Both the position numbers and the translations under genes were made by a program. This document shows positions 5,116 through 10,971 of a stretch of 64,000 nucleotides of DNA, piece after piece (position 1 is the stretch's first letter; each line of letters begins with the position of its first letter). Location: NCBI GenBank assembly GCA_963764725.1, contig CAVXTM010000002.1, forward strand, positions 32,001 through 96,000, in the 5' to 3' direction. The notes under the pieces are model-generated. The model was not told where the DNA came from. It was given only the letters and a program-made list of their open reading frames with translations, and ran no database searches. This DNA is from an uncultured Gammaproteobacteria bacterium (GTDB lineage Bacteria; Pseudomonadota; Gammaproteobacteria; JACCXJ01).

Positions 5116-5451
5116 TCACCGGATCAAGCGCTCGATCAGCAATGAGGCGAGATCGCGCCTGCCGTCCAGTACACCGAGGACATAAACACGATCGACATCA
5201 AACCGGTAGATGATGCGCCAAGGCCGGACGATGATCTCTCGGTACGCAAACACGCTAAGTTGCTTCAACTCTGGAACAAAGCGCCCGCGTTCCGGCAAGA
5301 ACGCGAGGTTTTTCGCGGAATGTTCAAGCCGGTCGAGGACGGCAAGTGCGTTTTCGGCGCTGTCATGGGCAATGAAACGAGCGATCTCTTCAACGTCTAT
5401 GCGTGCCGTTTCCGTCCATAGAATCTCATAGCGAGGCTTTGCCGCGCTCAA
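5116..5451 (-). CDS. ParE/RelE family toxin
   Basis: ILWTETARID..I..FIA.DS, PERGR.VPEL, WRIIYR, VLDGRRDL. Confidence 0.88.
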   Translation of the reverse strand: MSAAKPRYEILWTETARIDVEEIARFIAHDSAENALAVLDRLEHSAKNLAFLPERGRFVPELKQLSVFAYREIIVRPWRIIYRFDVDRVYVLGVLDGRRDLASLLIERLIR

Positions 5452-5716
5452 GCTCTTTCCTCAGGCTATTGAAGAGGTCACGTTGACCGACCACTCGATT
5501 GCGGCGAATATCGGCCTCGCCTTGCACCAGGAGCTTGAGCATGAGCAATCCCTGCTCGAGCTTGCGGAAGGAGGCTATGTCGTGCACGACCGCCGTGGCC
5601 GTGCCGTTCTGGGTCAATACGATGGCCTCGCCGCTTTCCCTGATTCGGGCCAGCAGTTGGCTGGCCTCGCTCTTGAATTCGCTGAGACTGATGATGGATT
5701 CGCTCATAGCTATCAA
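5426..5716 (-). CDS. Phd/YefM family antitoxin
   Basis: ISLSEFKSEASQLL...IVLTQNG..AVV; overlaps the toxin start. Confidence 0.88.
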   Translation of the reverse strand: MIAMSESIISLSEFKSEASQLLARIRESGEAIVLTQNGTATAVVHDIASFRKLEQGLLMLKLLVQGEADIRRNRVVGQRDLFNSLRKELERGKASL

Positions 5717-5943: not shown

Positions 5944-6795
5944 TCACGAGCCCCGCGGCAACGCGTAGAACGCGACCGCATTGTCGTGGAACAGAAGGCG
6001 TTGCTCGTCCTCCGGACGCCGCGCGACGATCAGCCGCAGCGCCTCGATCCAACGCGCAAGCCCGCCGTGCAGCGTGCAGACGGGCCAGTTGCCGCCGAAC
6101 AACACGCGTCGCGGCCCGAACGCCTCGATCACGTGGTCGACGATGGGCGCGACCTCAGCCGCGGCCGCAGCGAGTGGGCCCTCGGGCACGGGCAGCCCCG
6201 AGACCTTGCAGACGGTGTTTCCGGCCCGCGCGACCACTTCGATGTCGCGCCGCCACTGGTGAAGGTCGGCCGGACCGAGCCCGACGTTGCCGCAGTGGTC
6301 GAGGACGAAGCGCGTGTCCGGACAGGCCGCCGCGAGCGCGGCGCCGTCCGCCAGCTCCGCGCTGCGCATGCACAGGTCGAAGCAGAGCCCGTTCGCGCCG
6401 AGCCAGCGCACGTCCGCGACAAAGGCGGGCTCGAGGCACAGCTTCGGGCGTGCCGATGGCACCTGAAGCACTTGACGGACGCCTTTGGCGAAGGGATCGT
6501 CCTTGAAGCGCGCTACCAGCGCGCGGAACCCGGGCGTTCCCGGGTGCCCAGGGAGGACCGCGCCCGCGAGCGGTGTGTCGGTACGGCGGCACAGCTCGAG
6601 GACGTGGTGCGCCTCGGTTGCCTGCTGCTCCACCGCGGCATCGATCTCCATGTAGACACTTCGCTCGATGCCTGTCCCGAGCGTAGCTTTGGCGTAGTCG
6701 TCGAGCGGCAAATATGCTCGATCGGCGCGCGTCCAAGGCAGGTCGAAGCGCGTTAAGTCCCAGAGGTGCTGGTGGGTGTCTACGATCGGAATCAT
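5944..6795 (-). CDS. Amidohydrolase-2 family protein (sugar lactonase-like)
   Basis: IVDTHQHLWD, FVLDHCG, VCKVSG, VLFGGNWPVC, FHDNA..FY; ATG at 6795. Confidence 0.88.
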   Translation of the reverse strand: MIPIVDTHQHLWDLTRFDLPWTRADRAYLPLDDYAKATLGTGIERSVYMEIDAAVEQQATEAHHVLELCRRTDTPLAGAVLPGHPGTPGFRALVARFKDDPFAKGVRQVLQVPSARPKLCLEPAFVADVRWLGANGLCFDLCMRSAELADGAALAAACPDTRFVLDHCGNVGLGPADLHQWRRDIEVVARAGNTVCKVSGLPVPEGPLAAAAAEVAPIVDHVIEAFGPRRVLFGGNWPVCTLHGGLARWIEALRLIVARRPEDEQRLLFHDNAVAFYALPRGS

Positions 6796-6823
6796 GCGCG
6801 CCCTCTGTCCCTCCTCATCGTCT

Positions 6824-8479
6824 CTAAGCCGCCGGCCGTTGCGTGAGCTTATCGCTCGCTTCGCGCTCCGCCTCGAGGCGTTTGATGGATGCCGATAACT
6901 CCGGAAGCACATGTGCGAAGGTAAACATGTAATAGTGGTACCCCATCAAGATAAAGGGAAGTATAAAAGGCATTTGGTCGGGGCATTTGAGAATGACCTT
7001 CCAGGCGAAGGACTGGCTTGCGCGTTTGTAATGCGCCGGCAGCCGGTGAAGGATGCGATAGAAGGACCTGAGCTGGCGTAGAAAGGATCGCAGCGTCCGG
7101 CGTTTACCGGCGCCCTGCAGTAGGAAGGACACCCCCACATGCCCGAGCCACAGAGCCCTCGCTATACGTTCCCACGCGCGACCGGGATGAGGGAGGTGAC
7201 AGAGGGCCTCAAAGGCCCGTTTGAAATACTCTTCCGGCGCATAGATCGATTGCAGGATCTGGCAATGCCCTTCCAACAATCGGATCGCGGGAATCAGGGT
7301 GACGATATTGGTATAACCCGAGGCGATCGTCTGATCGTACCCTCGGCCATCTCCTGTCAGGAGACGGCCCGTCTGCTGCATGCGGGCGTAGAGCGGGGTC
7401 CCGGGTAGGGCCACCAGCGGCCCGATCATGGCGTTGGTAATTGCCGCCTGTCCGATAAACGCGATCTGGCGAGCGAAGATGTCCTCCCCATCGCTATCGA
7501 AACCGATGATGAACCCGCCGAAGACCAGTAGACCCGCGCTTTGGATCTTATGGACGCGCCCCTCGAGCGAGCCTTTCAGGTTCTGGAACTTACGGGTCTC
7601 CTTTAGACTTTCTGCCGAGGGAGACTCGATGCCGAGAAACACCCAGGTGAAGTTGGCCCTGACCATGAGATCCAAAAGCTCACCGTCTTCGGAGAGATTC
7701 ACCGAGGCCTCGGTCCCGTAGAAGAAGGGGTGCCCGTGGGCGGCGTTCCAGGCGGCCAGTTCCACCAGGAACCGCTTGACTTCCTTCTTGTTGCCGATGA
7801 AGTTGTCATCGACGATAAAGATCATCCCCCGGTATCCGGTCTCAAGGATCGCCCCCAGCTCCCGCAACACCTGAGCCGGTGTTTTGGTCCTTGGCTTGCG
7901 GCCGAACATGACGATGATGTCGCAGAACTCGCATTGAAACGGGCAACCTCGGGAGAATTGAATCGGGATGATTCCATACGCGTCGATGTTCAGGAGCTCG
8001 AAGCGGGGGACAGGGGTGCTGGAGACATCGGGCTTCTCCTCGCTGGTATACCTGTCTTTATAAATACCTCGTTCCAGATCCTCGAGGAAGGCCGGCCAGG
8101 TGATCTCGCCTTCGCTCAGCACCAGGACATCGCAATGCGGCGCGCATTCAGCCGCACAGGCCGTCGGATAGGGGCCTCCAAAGACGATCAACTTGTGTGC
8201 GGCCTTGCAGTGCTCGGCCACTTGAAAGAGCGACGGTTTCTGTGGAAGCATCGCCGAAAAACACACGATATCGGCCCAGCCGAGGTCCTCCTCCGTCAAG
8301 GCTTCGCAGTTCAAGTCCACCAGGCGGATCTCATAGTGGCTGGAGGTCAAGGCTGCGATGGTGATAAGCCCGAGCGGCGGCATCAGGGCTTGCTTGCCGA
8401 TGAGAGGAAGAAAGTACTGCATTCCCCAATAGGTCTTCGGAAATTCCGGGTAGACCATCAAAAGGTGCCGATAGCGCAT
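6824..8479 (-). CDS. Cobalamin-binding radical SAM protein (DUF4070-type); frame is open upstream to GTG 8584
   Basis: PPLGLITIAA B12-binding region; SRGCPFQCEFCDI (CxxxCxxC); FIVDDNFIGN. Confidence 0.92.
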   Translation of the reverse strand: MRYRHLLMVYPEFPKTYWGMQYFLPLIGKQALMPPLGLITIAALTSSHYEIRLVDLNCEALTEEDLGWADIVCFSAMLPQKPSLFQVAEHCKAAHKLIVFGGPYPTACAAECAPHCDVLVLSEGEITWPAFLEDLERGIYKDRYTSEEKPDVSSTPVPRFELLNIDAYGIIPIQFSRGCPFQCEFCDIIVMFGRKPRTKTPAQVLRELGAILETGYRGMIFIVDDNFIGNKKEVKRFLVELAAWNAAHGHPFFYGTEASVNLSEDGELLDLMVRANFTWVFLGIESPSAESLKETRKFQNLKGSLEGRVHKIQSAGLLVFGGFIIGFDSDGEDIFARQIAFIGQAAITNAMIGPLVALPGTPLYARMQQTGRLLTGDGRGYDQTIASGYTNIVTLIPAIRLLEGHCQILQSIYAPEEYFKRAFEALCHLPHPGRAWERIARALWLGHVGVSFLLQGAGKRRTLRSFLRQLRSFYRILHRLPAHYKRASQSFAWKVILKCPDQMPFILPFILMGYHYYMFTFAHVLPELSASIKRLEAEREASDKLTQRPAA

Positions 8480-8580
8480 GCTCAAAGCGTCGGGGAACGG
8501 GCGGCTCACCTTGGCCGCGGGCAACTGGAGATGATCGGCTGGAAGTACCGCAGCGCCGACGCCTCGTTCGACCAACCCGG

Positions 8581-9630
8581 TCACGTCCCGCCTCTGAGCT
8601 CATTCACCACGGCCCGTATCCCCTTTGCAACGTCGGTGAACGCCTCGTCGATATCCGTCCAGCTCTTGATGGGCTTGGCGTCCTTTGGTAGGGCCTGCAA
8701 TTTACCGAAAGGCGCGCCCGCCCAGTTAACATTGCGCAGAATGACCGGGATGACCCGCGCAGTTCTGGCCTCATGCCGCGCCATGCCGCGCTTGAGCTCG
8801 ATGTCCCAGCAGTAGTCGGAGGCGAGGAAATCGTCGCTGACAAGCAGCAGGATGATCTCGGCGGATTCGAGGTGCTCGTCGATAGCACCGGCCCATTCGT
8901 TGCCAGCGCCGATCTTGCGGTCGTGCCAGTCTTCGATCACGCCCTGCCGCTTCAGAATGCTGAGGTGCTTGACCAGCTTGTCCTTGTACTCTTCGTCTTT
9001 ATGGGAATAAGAGAAGAAGATGCGAATCTTCTTTTTCTGTTCGTTCGTAGGCTCCTCCTTGTCCCTGAGCGTGATGCCTAGCACTTCGGCCAGATCATGC
9101 GTGCCGTCGAGCGCGCGCGTTATGTAACTCCAGGGAACGAACCTTCCATCGATCTTATCGTGATTCGTCCAATCGGCCAACCGTTTGTCGAGGCCGAACC
9201 ACGGGACGTCGAGGTCCTCCGCGATGACCCGGATCGACTTCGACCGGAACAAGTAGCGGATCCCCTCCACAGCGGCGACGTGATTACCGTCCCCAAGGAT
9301 CCACTTGGGGATCTGGAGAATGGCGAGCTCTGTGTTCCCGCCACCCTGGATCGATGTGAAGCGCCGCACCATCGAACCGCCGTAGGGATCCTTGACTTCG
9401 GCATCCGTCACGCTAATCCCGCGCGAAGCAAGCCCCGACCGCATCCGATCGCTCAACTCCGCGGAAAGCCGCATGTCGACGAGAGCGGCCGCGGGGTCGG
9501 GGCGTGGAGCCGACGGCGTCAGACGATCGAACAGATTCGCAAATCCGCTCGACCGCGCCACGGCCTCGCCGCCGGACTGGATGCCTTTGAGCGAGATCTC
9601 GGTCGCCTGTGGATCCATCTCGCCGCTCAC
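8581..9630 (-). CDS. TIR-domain protein with unknown ~190-aa N-terminal domain
   Basis: C-terminal IFFSYSHKD...W.DRKI.AG.EW...I...LESAEIILLLVS.DFLASDYCW..E...VIPVILR (TIR_2); catalytic-position Glu present. Confidence 0.9.
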   Translation of the reverse strand: MSGEMDPQATEISLKGIQSGGEAVARSSGFANLFDRLTPSAPRPDPAAALVDMRLSAELSDRMRSGLASRGISVTDAEVKDPYGGSMVRRFTSIQGGGNTELAILQIPKWILGDGNHVAAVEGIRYLFRSKSIRVIAEDLDVPWFGLDKRLADWTNHDKIDGRFVPWSYITRALDGTHDLAEVLGITLRDKEEPTNEQKKKIRIFFSYSHKDEEYKDKLVKHLSILKRQGVIEDWHDRKIGAGNEWAGAIDEHLESAEIILLLVSDDFLASDYCWDIELKRGMARHEARTARVIPVILRNVNWAGAPFGKLQALPKDAKPIKSWTDIDEAFTDVAKGIRAVVNELRGGT

Positions 9631-10778
9631 ACGCTTGCGGGCGCCCGGTTGGAGTCGCCCCTGATCCTTGGCACGCTGAGGAGCTGCGCGGCACGCTCGG
9701 CGAGTGCGTCGGGATCAGAGTCGCCGAGCACCTCGTGGATGGCCGAGTCACTCGGCAGGTGGACCAGGCTGACGCCTTCGCGCTCACCGAATGTGCGCAG
9801 ACTGTCACCGATCGCTCCGCCGACCAGTACGAGGAACGGGCGTACGCCGAGTCCAAGTCCTCCGTTCTCAGCGGCTAACCGCTCCTGCAGGATGTTCGCA
9901 GCCGAGAGCAGGGTGCTTGCCATCGACCAATCCGAGGTTTTGGCGCCGGTCGCACCCCGCTTGACGACCACGGCGAGAACGCGCTCGCCACCGTAGGCGA
10001 GAAAATCGACTTCCTTCAAGAGTGGATCCACATCCGGATCTCCGGTCGTGGGGGAGGTGATAGCCTTGTAACCCGCGGCTTCGAGAAGTTTCCTGACGCT
10101 CTCCTCGGCACGACGGTCTGCGGCGCCAAGCGGCTTCTCTTTTCCGATCTCGGAAAGCGGCAAGCTCGTGTAGAACAGGACTGCGGTCAGAACCGCGGCG
10201 AACGCTGTCCCTCCCGGATCGAGAAGGAATACCGAGACCAGCACGACTCCAATCGCCAGCGCGGCCACCAGCCACAATTTCGCGGGATTCGCCAGCAGGG
10301 CTAGAAACGGCGTGCGGGTCCCCGGGACCGTCGGGTACAGCTTTGCCGCGAGAGCTTTCGCTACTTCGGCGGGGACGGAAAAAAAAGTGACGATCACCAG
10401 GGCCGCGGACGCTCGCCTCCCCCAGACGGACGGATTCCCGATCAGATCGGCGCCAACGATGAGGACGCTACCGCTAGCAATCCAGTAGAACAGTGCATAG
10501 ACGATGAAGCCAGTCAGGCTGATGGCGGTGGCCTGTCCTACCGCACTCCACAGGCCCAGGGCCCACTCTCCCAGAGTGGGCTGAAACGTCGATCTCGACT
10601 CGATTTTCCTGATGCCAACGAAGCCGCCGATCGCTGCCGCAGCCGCCACGAGCGGAAGCCATCTCCATTCGTCGATCAGCAGCAGAAAAGGAAGTAGGCC
10701 GAATACGAAGCCGAACGCCGTGGCAAGCACCAGCGCGGGCTTGTTCGGGGCGAACGTCTCGGGAACAGAGGGGATCAT
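9627..10778 (-). CDS. Multi-pass membrane protein with C-terminal PD-(D/E)XK-like domain
   Basis: About 6 hydrophobic helices, then AEESVRKLLEAAGY...EVDFLAY.GERVLAVVVK, resembling an Mrr-type restriction-endonuclease core; start uncertain (ATG 10778 or upstream). Confidence 0.6.
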   Translation of the reverse strand: MIPSVPETFAPNKPALVLATAFGFVFGLLPFLLLIDEWRWLPLVAAAAAIGGFVGIRKIESRSTFQPTLGEWALGLWSAVGQATAISLTGFIVYALFYWIASGSVLIVGADLIGNPSVWGRRASAALVIVTFFSVPAEVAKALAAKLYPTVPGTRTPFLALLANPAKLWLVAALAIGVVLVSVFLLDPGGTAFAAVLTAVLFYTSLPLSEIGKEKPLGAADRRAEESVRKLLEAAGYKAITSPTTGDPDVDPLLKEVDFLAYGGERVLAVVVKRGATGAKTSDWSMASTLLSAANILQERLAAENGGLGLGVRPFLVLVGGAIGDSLRTFGEREGVSLVHLPSDSAIHEVLGDSDPDALAERAAQLLSVPRIRGDSNRAPASV

Positions 10779-10971
10779 GCCTTGAACCTTGCGCCTTGTC
10801 AGAGGCGACCGGCGCATCATACGTCCATCGCGTGCCCGATCACAGCCTCCGACCGTCGGACCCGCCATGGGCTACCCCGAATTGCTCAAAATTGCGCGAT
10901 CATCCAGCTCGGTGCGGGAAGGATATCGGATCGCATGGGCGGCTCACCTTGTGCGTCAAACCATACACGCG

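Follow-up and report, generated by a model that had tools for sequence, protein, structure and literature searches.

TIR and TIR-like NADases are a theme common to bacterial, plant and animal immunity. In type II Thoeris, a TIR protein (ThsB) is encoded in a two-gene operon with a transmembrane-Macro effector, and a similar layout was encountered in the stretch of DNA analyzed here (the window: 64,000 nucleotides of contig CAVXTM010000002.1), where two adjoining minus-strand genes, hereafter A and B, encode a protein with membrane helices and a cytosolic domain and a TIR protein that retains its Glu. The cytosolic domain of A, however, has a PD-(D/E)xK fold rather than a Macro, SLOG, DUF2270, DUF6650, or SLATT domain, and B differs from Thoeris in carrying a conserved extra N-terminal domain (the N-domain) that tracks the partner and a TIR that is exchangeable with DUF4062. 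None of the named Thoeris effectors (SIR2-SLOG, TM-Macro, caspase-like, DUF2270, DUF6650, SLATT, and CMP hydrolase) had a Pfam or PADLOC match in A, PADLOC-DB being the 2023 release without Thoeris types V–XI. An initial annotation of this DNA had described the pair as unlike named systems, a description that stands within the scope of those 2023 models, none of which matches A. The accessible part of Yirmiya et al. 2025 reports 29 putative Thoeris types, DNases and “a variety” of membrane proteins included (bioRxiv 10.64898/2025.12.03.692087). The terms “endonuclease,” “nuclease,” “Mrr,” “restriction,” and “DUF4062” do not occur in the accessible main text of that preprint, the effector list of which sits in Figure 1C/Table S1, outside this check.

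DUF4062 is described, in the accessible parts of two preprints, as a TIR-like NADase that hydrolyzes NAD+, an executioner and “modular effector domain” (10.64898/2026.05.01.722283; 10.64898/2026.09.04.749371), and its occurrence in Swarozyc, Vulcan, Vesta, Evangelion, and Avs systems is likewise reported in the accessible portions of three 2026 preprints. As far as these portions go, Swarozyc, Vulcan, Vesta, Evangelion, Avs-NIR, and Cat1 resemble the present pair in using a TIR-superfamily NADase as modular output on oligomerization-controlling accessory domains. One relative of the window pair (locus L016) carries DUF4062 itself, whereas window B has a canonical TIR_2, and no counterpart of the N-domain is detectable in the DUF4062/NIR systems as set out in the accessible texts. 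Neither “transmembrane” nor “endonuclease” occurs in the accessible main text of two of the three DUF4062 preprints; in that of Evangelion, “transmembrane” and “membrane” are both missing, and “endonuclease” appears solely where a phage homing-endonuclease remnant is mentioned.

In the accessible parts of PMC7159879 and PMC8195603, Kaur, Burroughs, Iyer, and Aravind count REase and TIR among effector domains that can replace one another. The likeness to their constant-component/variable-effector systems is that B-like TIRs (60–73% identical) are highly shuffled, onto CHAT, caspase, FGE-sulfatase, NB-ARC, and EAD, and that the A module is itself found in fusions with TPR-S and pYEATS. By those same parts, A and B differ in that the pair has no NTPase, vWA-MoxR, or EAD component, and in that the REase, an effector there, is degenerate and membrane-tethered in A; neither paper, in its accessible text, uses the words pYEATS, TPR-S, or patatin or gives an account of the membrane module of A. 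The fold of A is common to Mrr/Hjc/YraN-type nucleases and to the nuclease domains of Can2, Card1, and NucS, to which A adds a six-helix membrane domain and a 17-residue loop before the Asp, with no Pfam model above threshold. The literature searched contained no description of a membrane REase-fold protein accompanied by a TIR or DUF4062 protein, the effector table of 10.64898/2025.12.03.692087 not being covered, and no paper combining pYEATS, TPR-S, and patatin.

Judged by sequence, A and B most likely constitute a two-gene conflict system built on a TIR/NADase, in which both the partner family and the adaptor domain are new. Setting aside that same effector table, and as far as the texts and libraries searched go, neither A nor the N-domain is likely to have been described beside TIR or DUF4062. 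The reading favored here is that the two genes would form a self-contained, horizontally mobile conflict cassette, most likely an anti-phage abortive-infection system, to which we assign a probability of about 0.45.

Pairing of A with the N-domain and exchange of the C-terminal domain of B

Three of nine genomes of the genus contain A (G000, G003, and G005), and the N-domain occurs in the same three, directly adjacent; the six genomes without A are 89–98% complete. A metagenome scan yielded 12 loci, which were compared by tblastn. Among loci where A, whether intact or frameshifted, is followed by at least 200 nt of sequence, the N-domain gene comes directly after it in 11/11 (G000, G003, G005, and L011–L018); two loci that end inside A (L021 and L022) and two that hold only a 200-bp relic of it (L019 and L020) were not counted for pairing. 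By identity to A, three lineages are distinguished: the window clade (at least 90%), L016 (36%), and L017/L018 (35%). The N-domain gene lies immediately downstream, as far as each contig reaches, in L011–L015 (A 91–93% identical), and its homologue after A was detected by tblastn at E 2e-25 in L016 and 1e-12 in L017/L018, with hhalign probabilities of 99.3% (P0281) and 97.5% (P0282). A 4-base start/stop overlap is found in all three lineages, as GTGA in the window and ATGA in L016 and L017. Two further proteins, P0127 (41% identical to A) and P0011 (63% to B), each come from a contig of 3795 bases, probably the same one.

The domain that follows the N-domain is TIR_2 in the window and DUF4062 in its place in L016 (P0281, Pfam E 1.1e-18); in L017 it is a stretch cut by the contig end, with no Pfam match. 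DUF4062 has no Pfam match in window A (P0001) or B (P0002). Replacement of the TIR by DUF4062 with retention of the N-domain suggests that the TIR serves as an exchangeable executioner and does not generate a signal as in Thoeris. Since DUF4062 is reported as an NADase, the swap would be between two NAD+-destroying families, a variable effector on a constant partner.

Both genes are intact in the window. In comparisons with two close relatives, dN/dS was 0.26–0.28 for A and 0.15–0.22 for B, within which the N-domain gave 0.20–0.40 and the TIR 0.07–0.08. Thus, A and B are real genes under purifying selection, with every part at 0.07–0.4 in the two comparisons. The initial annotation had proposed a two-gene module, possibly with a catalytically altered nuclease fold. 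Both proposals are supported, because homologues of the two genes co-occur (the N-domain gene beside A in 11/11 loci), a PD-(D/E)xK fold with Val at position 271 was found in A, and no PADLOC model matches A.

Co-folding, suggested alongside the initial annotation, was carried out with whole A (80-row alignment) and residues 40 to 195 of B (5 rows) against three controls. The score was 0.49 (runs of 0.49, 0.00, and 0.53) with a best control of 0.00, which passes a mark reached by 58/80 solved complexes and 2/110 mismatched pairs; at scores of 0.60 or under, the mark was reached by 7/80 solved complexes and by both passing mismatches. The runs agreed in at least 2% of contacts, with partner pLDDT of at least 71. 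The outcome is a slight push towards a predicted A–B complex, weakened by the one run at 0.00.

Domain architecture of the two proteins

Coordinates are collected in Table 1. The overlap of the two genes reported initially was confirmed on the minus strand: the plus-strand letters tcac at 9627–9630 read GTGA on the coding strand, where GTG (9630–9628) opens B and TGA (9629–9627) ends A. A longer reading frame of A opens at 10868, upstream of the ATG at 10778; the latter is backed as the start by a homologue of 383 residues (P0003) and by the L012 frame, which opens at the equivalent ATG. A promoter/terminator scan gave nothing above shuffled expectation.

Hydropathy analysis detected five to six hydrophobic segments between residues 14 and 205 of A, in agreement with the approximately six transmembrane helices first annotated, and helices were placed there by AF2 at low confidence. 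Near-invariant residues of this membrane domain (at least 90% of 80 sequences) are G27, P30, P67, E71, L74, L147, P149, and G153. Pfam gave only sub-threshold matches to A (Mrr_cat, E 0.15, residues 223–275; Tmemb_14, E 0.063), with none for SLOG, Macro, DUF2270, DUF6650, or SLATT; NCBIfam returned nothing above cut-off, and PHROGs no match for A or B. In the Atlas, A matched only clusters without a name, at 0.85, and Mrr_cat clusters, at 0.77.

The AF2 model of A was made from a 4-sequence alignment; it is poor overall (mean pLDDT 48.8) and usable over residues 219 to 367 (block means 50–84), where the order is helix, three strands, helix, strand, helix, strand. Foldseek matches to this model were weak and all to nucleases, the best being MspJI (E 4.9e-3), followed by EndoMS, AF1548, Hjc, and Cdn1. 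The best fold matches of A include the nucleotide-controlled nucleases Can2, Card1, Cdn1, and NucC. Because all matches are nucleases and the model has this helix/strand order, the C-terminal domain of A is assigned, as modeled, to the PD-(D/E)xK fold with an alpha-beta-beta-beta-alpha-beta core, as the initial annotation had supposed.

A word-based search returned only five relatives of A. In a profile search of 1.84 billion cluster representatives, 309 relatives were found at E<=1e-3, 216 at <=1e-10, and 57 at <=1e-30, mostly 360 to 420 residues long and matching over their full length. By these sequences the family is rare and metagenome-only, with 309 cluster representatives and a consensus that keeps the canonical D...(E/D)xK. 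In a 401-genome sample of the phylum, the A profile gave only G000 and one YraN-like ORF, the latter in an unrelated genome at E 2.6e-6. A weak match in another genome (G032) was rejected as spurious, lying inside a cytochrome oxidase subunit II ORF. Contigs of species genomes scanned with the A-family and N-domain profiles contained no relative, nor did viral contigs scanned with two profiles, one of them that of the N-domain. Among 80 members of the A family taken individually, Pfam reported Hjc in 5/80 and AHJR-like in 4/80.

Active-site positions were surveyed in 117 full-length members (340–430 residues) drawn from 152 proteins, namely P0001, P0003, P0006, and 149 of 150 listed matches; P0004, a 341-residue copy of A with a divergent N terminus, was left out. 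The family consensus reads GY...D-L-L-A...A-V-E-V-K, with G236, Y237, P243, T245, D251, and P252 near-invariant and a 17-residue loop, P-R-T-G-x4-D-P, standing just before D258. The D258 column holds Asp in 106/117; at position 273, 72 members have Lys and 18 have Arg. Glu occupies position 271 in 51 members, Asp in 16, and Gln in 13, an acid thus being present in 67/117 members, which have the complete D...(E/D)xK, and absent from the window clade and 50/117 members. In window A the triad D...(D/E)-x-K is incomplete (D258, V271, K273), the Val (codon 9966–9968) standing where the family consensus has E/D, as had been noted from the start. Since V271 replaces the acid of D...(E/D)xK, the domain is probably a member of the fold and not an active nuclease. 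A compensating acid at position 256 was considered and rejected, given that 39/117 members have no acid at either position in a cross-table.

Three long members of the family have a patatin phospholipase preceding the A module: P0140 (TPR-S and patatin), P0241 (patatin), and P0280 (pYEATS, TPR-S, and patatin). In a FastTree phylogeny of 122 sequences, midpoint-rooted, partnered forms span 33/122 leaves and the patatin fusions appear scattered among them, two being nearest to partnered forms. The middle acid is absent (V, G, A, Q, or K) from 5/5 A proteins with a known or presumed N-domain partner gene, these five representing about three independent, partly related lineages and two of them (P0006 and P0127) being paired by inference only; ExK is kept in 3/3 patatin fusions. 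Such absence in paired A proteins fits a binding role for the nuclease fold, although the numbers are small. An N-domain HMM found nothing in the long fused forms of A, whose extra N-terminal parts look like further membrane segments.

Two rearranged forms of A were observed. A metagenomic protein of 222 residues (P0007) has an in-frame deletion that joins residues 1 to 70 of A, with two membrane helices, to the TIR of B; it has neither the nuclease-fold domain nor the N-domain, and could be either a genuine variant or an artifact of assembly that fuses two sequences. A 200-bp relic of A, covering residues about 56 to 110 at 93–96% identity, is present in L019 (9961–10162 of a 140-kb metagenome contig) and in L020. 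In L019 it is flanked by a DegT-like aminotransferase gene on one side and the gene of a large membrane protein on the other, and B does not occur nearby.

The C-terminal half of B matches TIR_2 (PF13676) over residues 204 to 304 at E 7.3e-14 (52.7 bits against a gathering cut-off of 28). Glu278, in the CWDIE motif that the initial annotation had pointed out, is invariant in four full-length homologues of B. The closest solved sequence to this TIR is the CRISPR-associated TIR NADase Cat1 (E 2.3e-8), where Glu278 aligns with the Glu of CWD-EL, which we take to be the catalytic residue. B TIRs are 60–73% identical to thousands of proteins (5891/7999 scored candidates at E<=1e-3), and the fusion partners of B-like TIRs include CHAT, caspase, FGE-sulfatase, NB-ARC, beta-helix, and EAD.

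A word search with approximately the first 195 residues of B returned only four relatives (P0008, P0009, P0010, and P0011). The initial annotation could not assign this region of about 190 residues, and the searches bear it out. For window B, Pfam gave no N-domain match at E<=10, and DUF3232 at E 0.092 was the only other outcome of the Pfam scans; the Atlas gave no usable match; and an N-domain profile against PDB returned only ribosomal uS4 at E 0.11, which is not significant. The region of this S4-type match, residues 86 to 133 (window about 9232–9375), is the most conserved stretch of the N-domain, LLQIPxWIxxDGNxV. Foldseek and VIA-align searches with a model of whole B gave only TIR matches, which filled the listings. 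The predicted N-domain (pLDDT about 40–84) has a helix at 57–68, strands at 73–80, 88–95, and 101–106, helices at 109–127, a strand at 132–137, a helix at 148–155, and a strand at 162–166. This alpha-beta-beta-beta-alpha-beta order, as predicted, may make it a cryptic nuclease-fold partner for a heterodimer with A, a comparison in which hhalign against the A nuclease-fold profile gave a probability of only 2%. By sequence, the N-domain is most likely a new adaptor domain outside the known families in the libraries searched.

Table 1. Positions in the window of the A–B gene pair, its domains, and the bordering repeats
Feature	Coordinates	Strand	Description or basis
Gene A	9627..10778	(-)	383 aa; N-terminal multi-pass membrane domain and C-terminal PD-(D/E)xK-fold domain (predicted); ORF and translation
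Membrane domain of A, residues 1-205	10164..10778	(-)	Hydropathy, low-pLDDT AF2 helices, conservation in 80 sequences
PD-(D/E)xK-fold domain of A (predicted), cytosolic, residues 215-372	9663..10136	(-)	D258, V271, K273
GTGA overlap, B start / A stop	9627..9630	(-)	Sequence
Gene B	8581..9630	(-)	349 aa, GTG start; N-domain and TIR
N-domain of B, residues 1-195	9046..9630	(-)	Part of B staying with A across lineages
TIR domain of B, residues about 200-345	8596..9033	(-)	Glu278 at 8797-8799
Left 15-bp direct repeat GGGCGGCTCACCTTG	8499..8513	(+)	Bounds cassette
Right 15-bp direct repeat GGGCGGCTCACCTTG	10937..10951	(+)	Also breakpoint of other insertions in relatives

A repeat-bounded cassette and its surroundings

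The two genes are exactly the content of a cassette of about 2.4 kb (about 8514–10936), bordered by a perfect 15-bp direct repeat. The 15-mer has no other exact copy in the window (0.00 expected by chance), and these two are the only exact copies in the 4.2-Mb genome. DNA comparison of five genomes of the genus showed the cassette to be absent, with the radical-SAM flank joined to the DoxX flank, from G001, G008, and a second contig of G003. G006 is also without the pair; its flanks are slightly shifted and stand about 130 unmatched bases apart. In G004 the site is divided between contigs. The filled form is carried by G003 too, and the presence of both forms indicates that its assembly mixes two alleles. 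Results on G001, G005, and G008 rest on genomes flagged unpublished. In one soil sequencing run (X2), a 1037-base contig joins 8498 to 10937, the 15 letters fitting both sides, and other contigs lie on the cassette; filled and empty forms thus coexist among the contigs of a single soil run. A 2025-base contig from another run covers 8846–10863, across the A/B junction. The GC content of the cassette (0.58–0.66) is the same as that of its flanks, and no recombinase was seen within it.

The site of the 15-bp repeat, just downstream of the DoxX gene, is a small hotspot for insertions. At the same point, G001 (L033, 1040–8996) has a 7.7-kb metabolic insert bounded by a 296-bp duplication that starts with the 15-mer, and its ORFs, judged by eye, appear to encode a PAP2-type enzyme, a multihaem cytochrome, a porin-like protein, and a cytochrome b561-like protein. 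An additional 1.5-kb insert at this point in L012 (7988–9502) encodes a protein of 405 residues.

Neighbors of the pair in the window are DoxX, parAB, atp genes, and a B12 radical-SAM gene. The last (6824–8584, minus strand) encodes a B12-binding radical-SAM protein with DUF4070 and is largely deleted in G001 and L012. A GTG at 8584 would make it overlap the B stop by GTGA; its true start is likely the ATG at 8479, with the 15-bp repeat between. It is placed outside the cassette because it is found in genomes without the cassette. Further along (5116–5716, minus strand) lie two small overlapping ORFs of 96 and 111 residues, which by eye resemble a Phd/YefM-type antitoxin and a RelE/ParE-type toxin. 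G008 and G001 lack this stretch as well as an amidohydrolase gene (5944–6912, GC up to 0.72).

Function of the pair and alternative explanations

From this arrangement we infer a defense role, an A–B complex, a direction of signaling, a trigger, and NAD+ depletion. A would be held in the inner membrane by its multi-pass domain, with the degenerate restriction-endonuclease-fold domain facing the cytoplasm, and would serve as sensor or scaffold; incoming DNA, a nucleotide, or membrane disturbance are possible triggers. B would dock on A through the N-domain and carry the output, a TIR NADase. In the triggered complex the TIR domains would be brought together and cleave NAD+, and the infected cell would be stopped. 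The nuclease fold of A would thus have been turned into a binding domain, with B activated by clustering. Taken together, the constant N-domain, the 4-base overlaps, the exchange between NADase families, and the lipase fusions suggest a constant sensor/scaffold with an exchangeable executioner.

Several observations weigh against this interpretation, and some of them lead to other explanations. With the complete D...(E/D)xK present in 67/117 members, A may well act as a genuine nuclease effector across much of its family, and its membrane domain is strongly conserved, as expected of a working part and not of a mere anchor, so that it could itself be the killing device. The PADLOC ThsB model PDLC00420 matches B at E 8.2e-61 (over the TIR part only), which leans towards a signaling TIR. 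These three points would suit a Thoeris-like circuit. B would then be a sensor of the ThsB type that makes an ADP-ribose-derived signal on infection, and A an effector that binds the signal through the nuclease fold or the P-R-T-G...D-P loop and then breaches the membrane or, in intact relatives, cuts DNA. The same circuit is consistent with the arrangement of the genes, a TIR next to a multi-pass membrane protein that also has a cytosolic part, which is the layout of type II Thoeris in the accessible part of its source (10.64898/2025.12.03.692087), with the nucleotide-controlled nucleases among the fold matches of A, and with the family-wide conservation of the loop adjoining the active-site Asp. 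However, the A lineage is paired with either TIR_2 or DUF4062, the latter a hydrolytic NADase executioner according to the accessible preprint texts, and a matched signal and receptor would hardly survive such a swap. The covariation of a dedicated N-domain with A, the 4-base overlap, and a co-folding score that passed weakly suggest a physical complex, for which a diffusible signal has no need; the Thoeris domains sought by Pfam are lacking in A, and where patatin is fused to the A module, that module already has its own effector. We consider a Thoeris-like circuit, which has genuine support, less likely than the favored reading and the strongest of the alternatives.

The genomic setting also weighs on the negative side. 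Gene-neighborhood analysis, called for with the initial annotation, upheld the co-occurrence of the two genes; no defense-island context was seen in the three contexts inspected (window, L016, and L017, by ORF inspection, with Pfam on three window neighbors), where neighbors look housekeeping or metabolic; other insertions at the cassette site in relatives are non-defense genes. Absence of a defense-island context in three lineages makes a non-immune role possible. The pair might be a conflict or addiction module not aimed at phages, serving plasmid or strain competition or acting as a toxin-antitoxin-like pair in which A would restrain a constitutively toxic NADase B, or else a physiological membrane pair that processes NAD or nucleotides. 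Its form as a compact, translationally coupled unit on a mobile cassette agrees with this, as do the metabolic cargo at the same insertion site in G001 and the RelE/ParE-like and Phd/YefM-like pair 3 kb away (identified by eye). Against it stand the usual marks of immune systems, namely TIR/DUF4062 with retained Glu, fusions to patatin, TPR-S, and pYEATS, and a patchy distribution. Moreover, A is frameshifted at three different places in 3/8 window-clade loci with an A gene (G005, L014, and L015), with B in one frame; were A an antitoxin, and assuming genuine frameshifts, this would kill the cell. Such a role is accordingly the less probable of the two alternatives considered so far. Those frameshifted A genes, which may be decaying copies or assembly errors, also count against the favored cassette interpretation, as does the restriction of observed pairs to only three independent lineages compared with 309 family representatives. 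Decay or loss of function, with the association reflecting shared ancestry within one lineage, would explain the frameshifts, the P0007 deletion, the A relic at the unrelated locus L019, and the rarity of the family; yet this is very improbable in view of dN/dS of 0.07–0.4 for every part in two comparisons, pairing and overlap kept at 35% identity, intact window genes, and retention of Glu278 and the family motifs.

Returning to the conflict-cassette interpretation, a more specific and more tentative proposal is that A represents a new family of inner-membrane immune sensors, in which a six-helix domain with a nuclease-dead restriction-enzyme fold would command interchangeable executioners, either through an adaptor (TIR, DUF4062/NIR) or by fusion (patatin), and would sense infection at the membrane, for example as incoming DNA or envelope damage. 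The question posed by TIR and TIR-like NADases is how each is activated, and the switch here would be a membrane protein with a degenerate nuclease fold acting with a new adaptor. The natural exchange of TIR, DUF4062, and patatin around an unchanging module would offer a clean comparative system for what that module senses, and the repeat-bounded presence and absence of the cassette in soil populations marks a small integration hotspot worth understanding.

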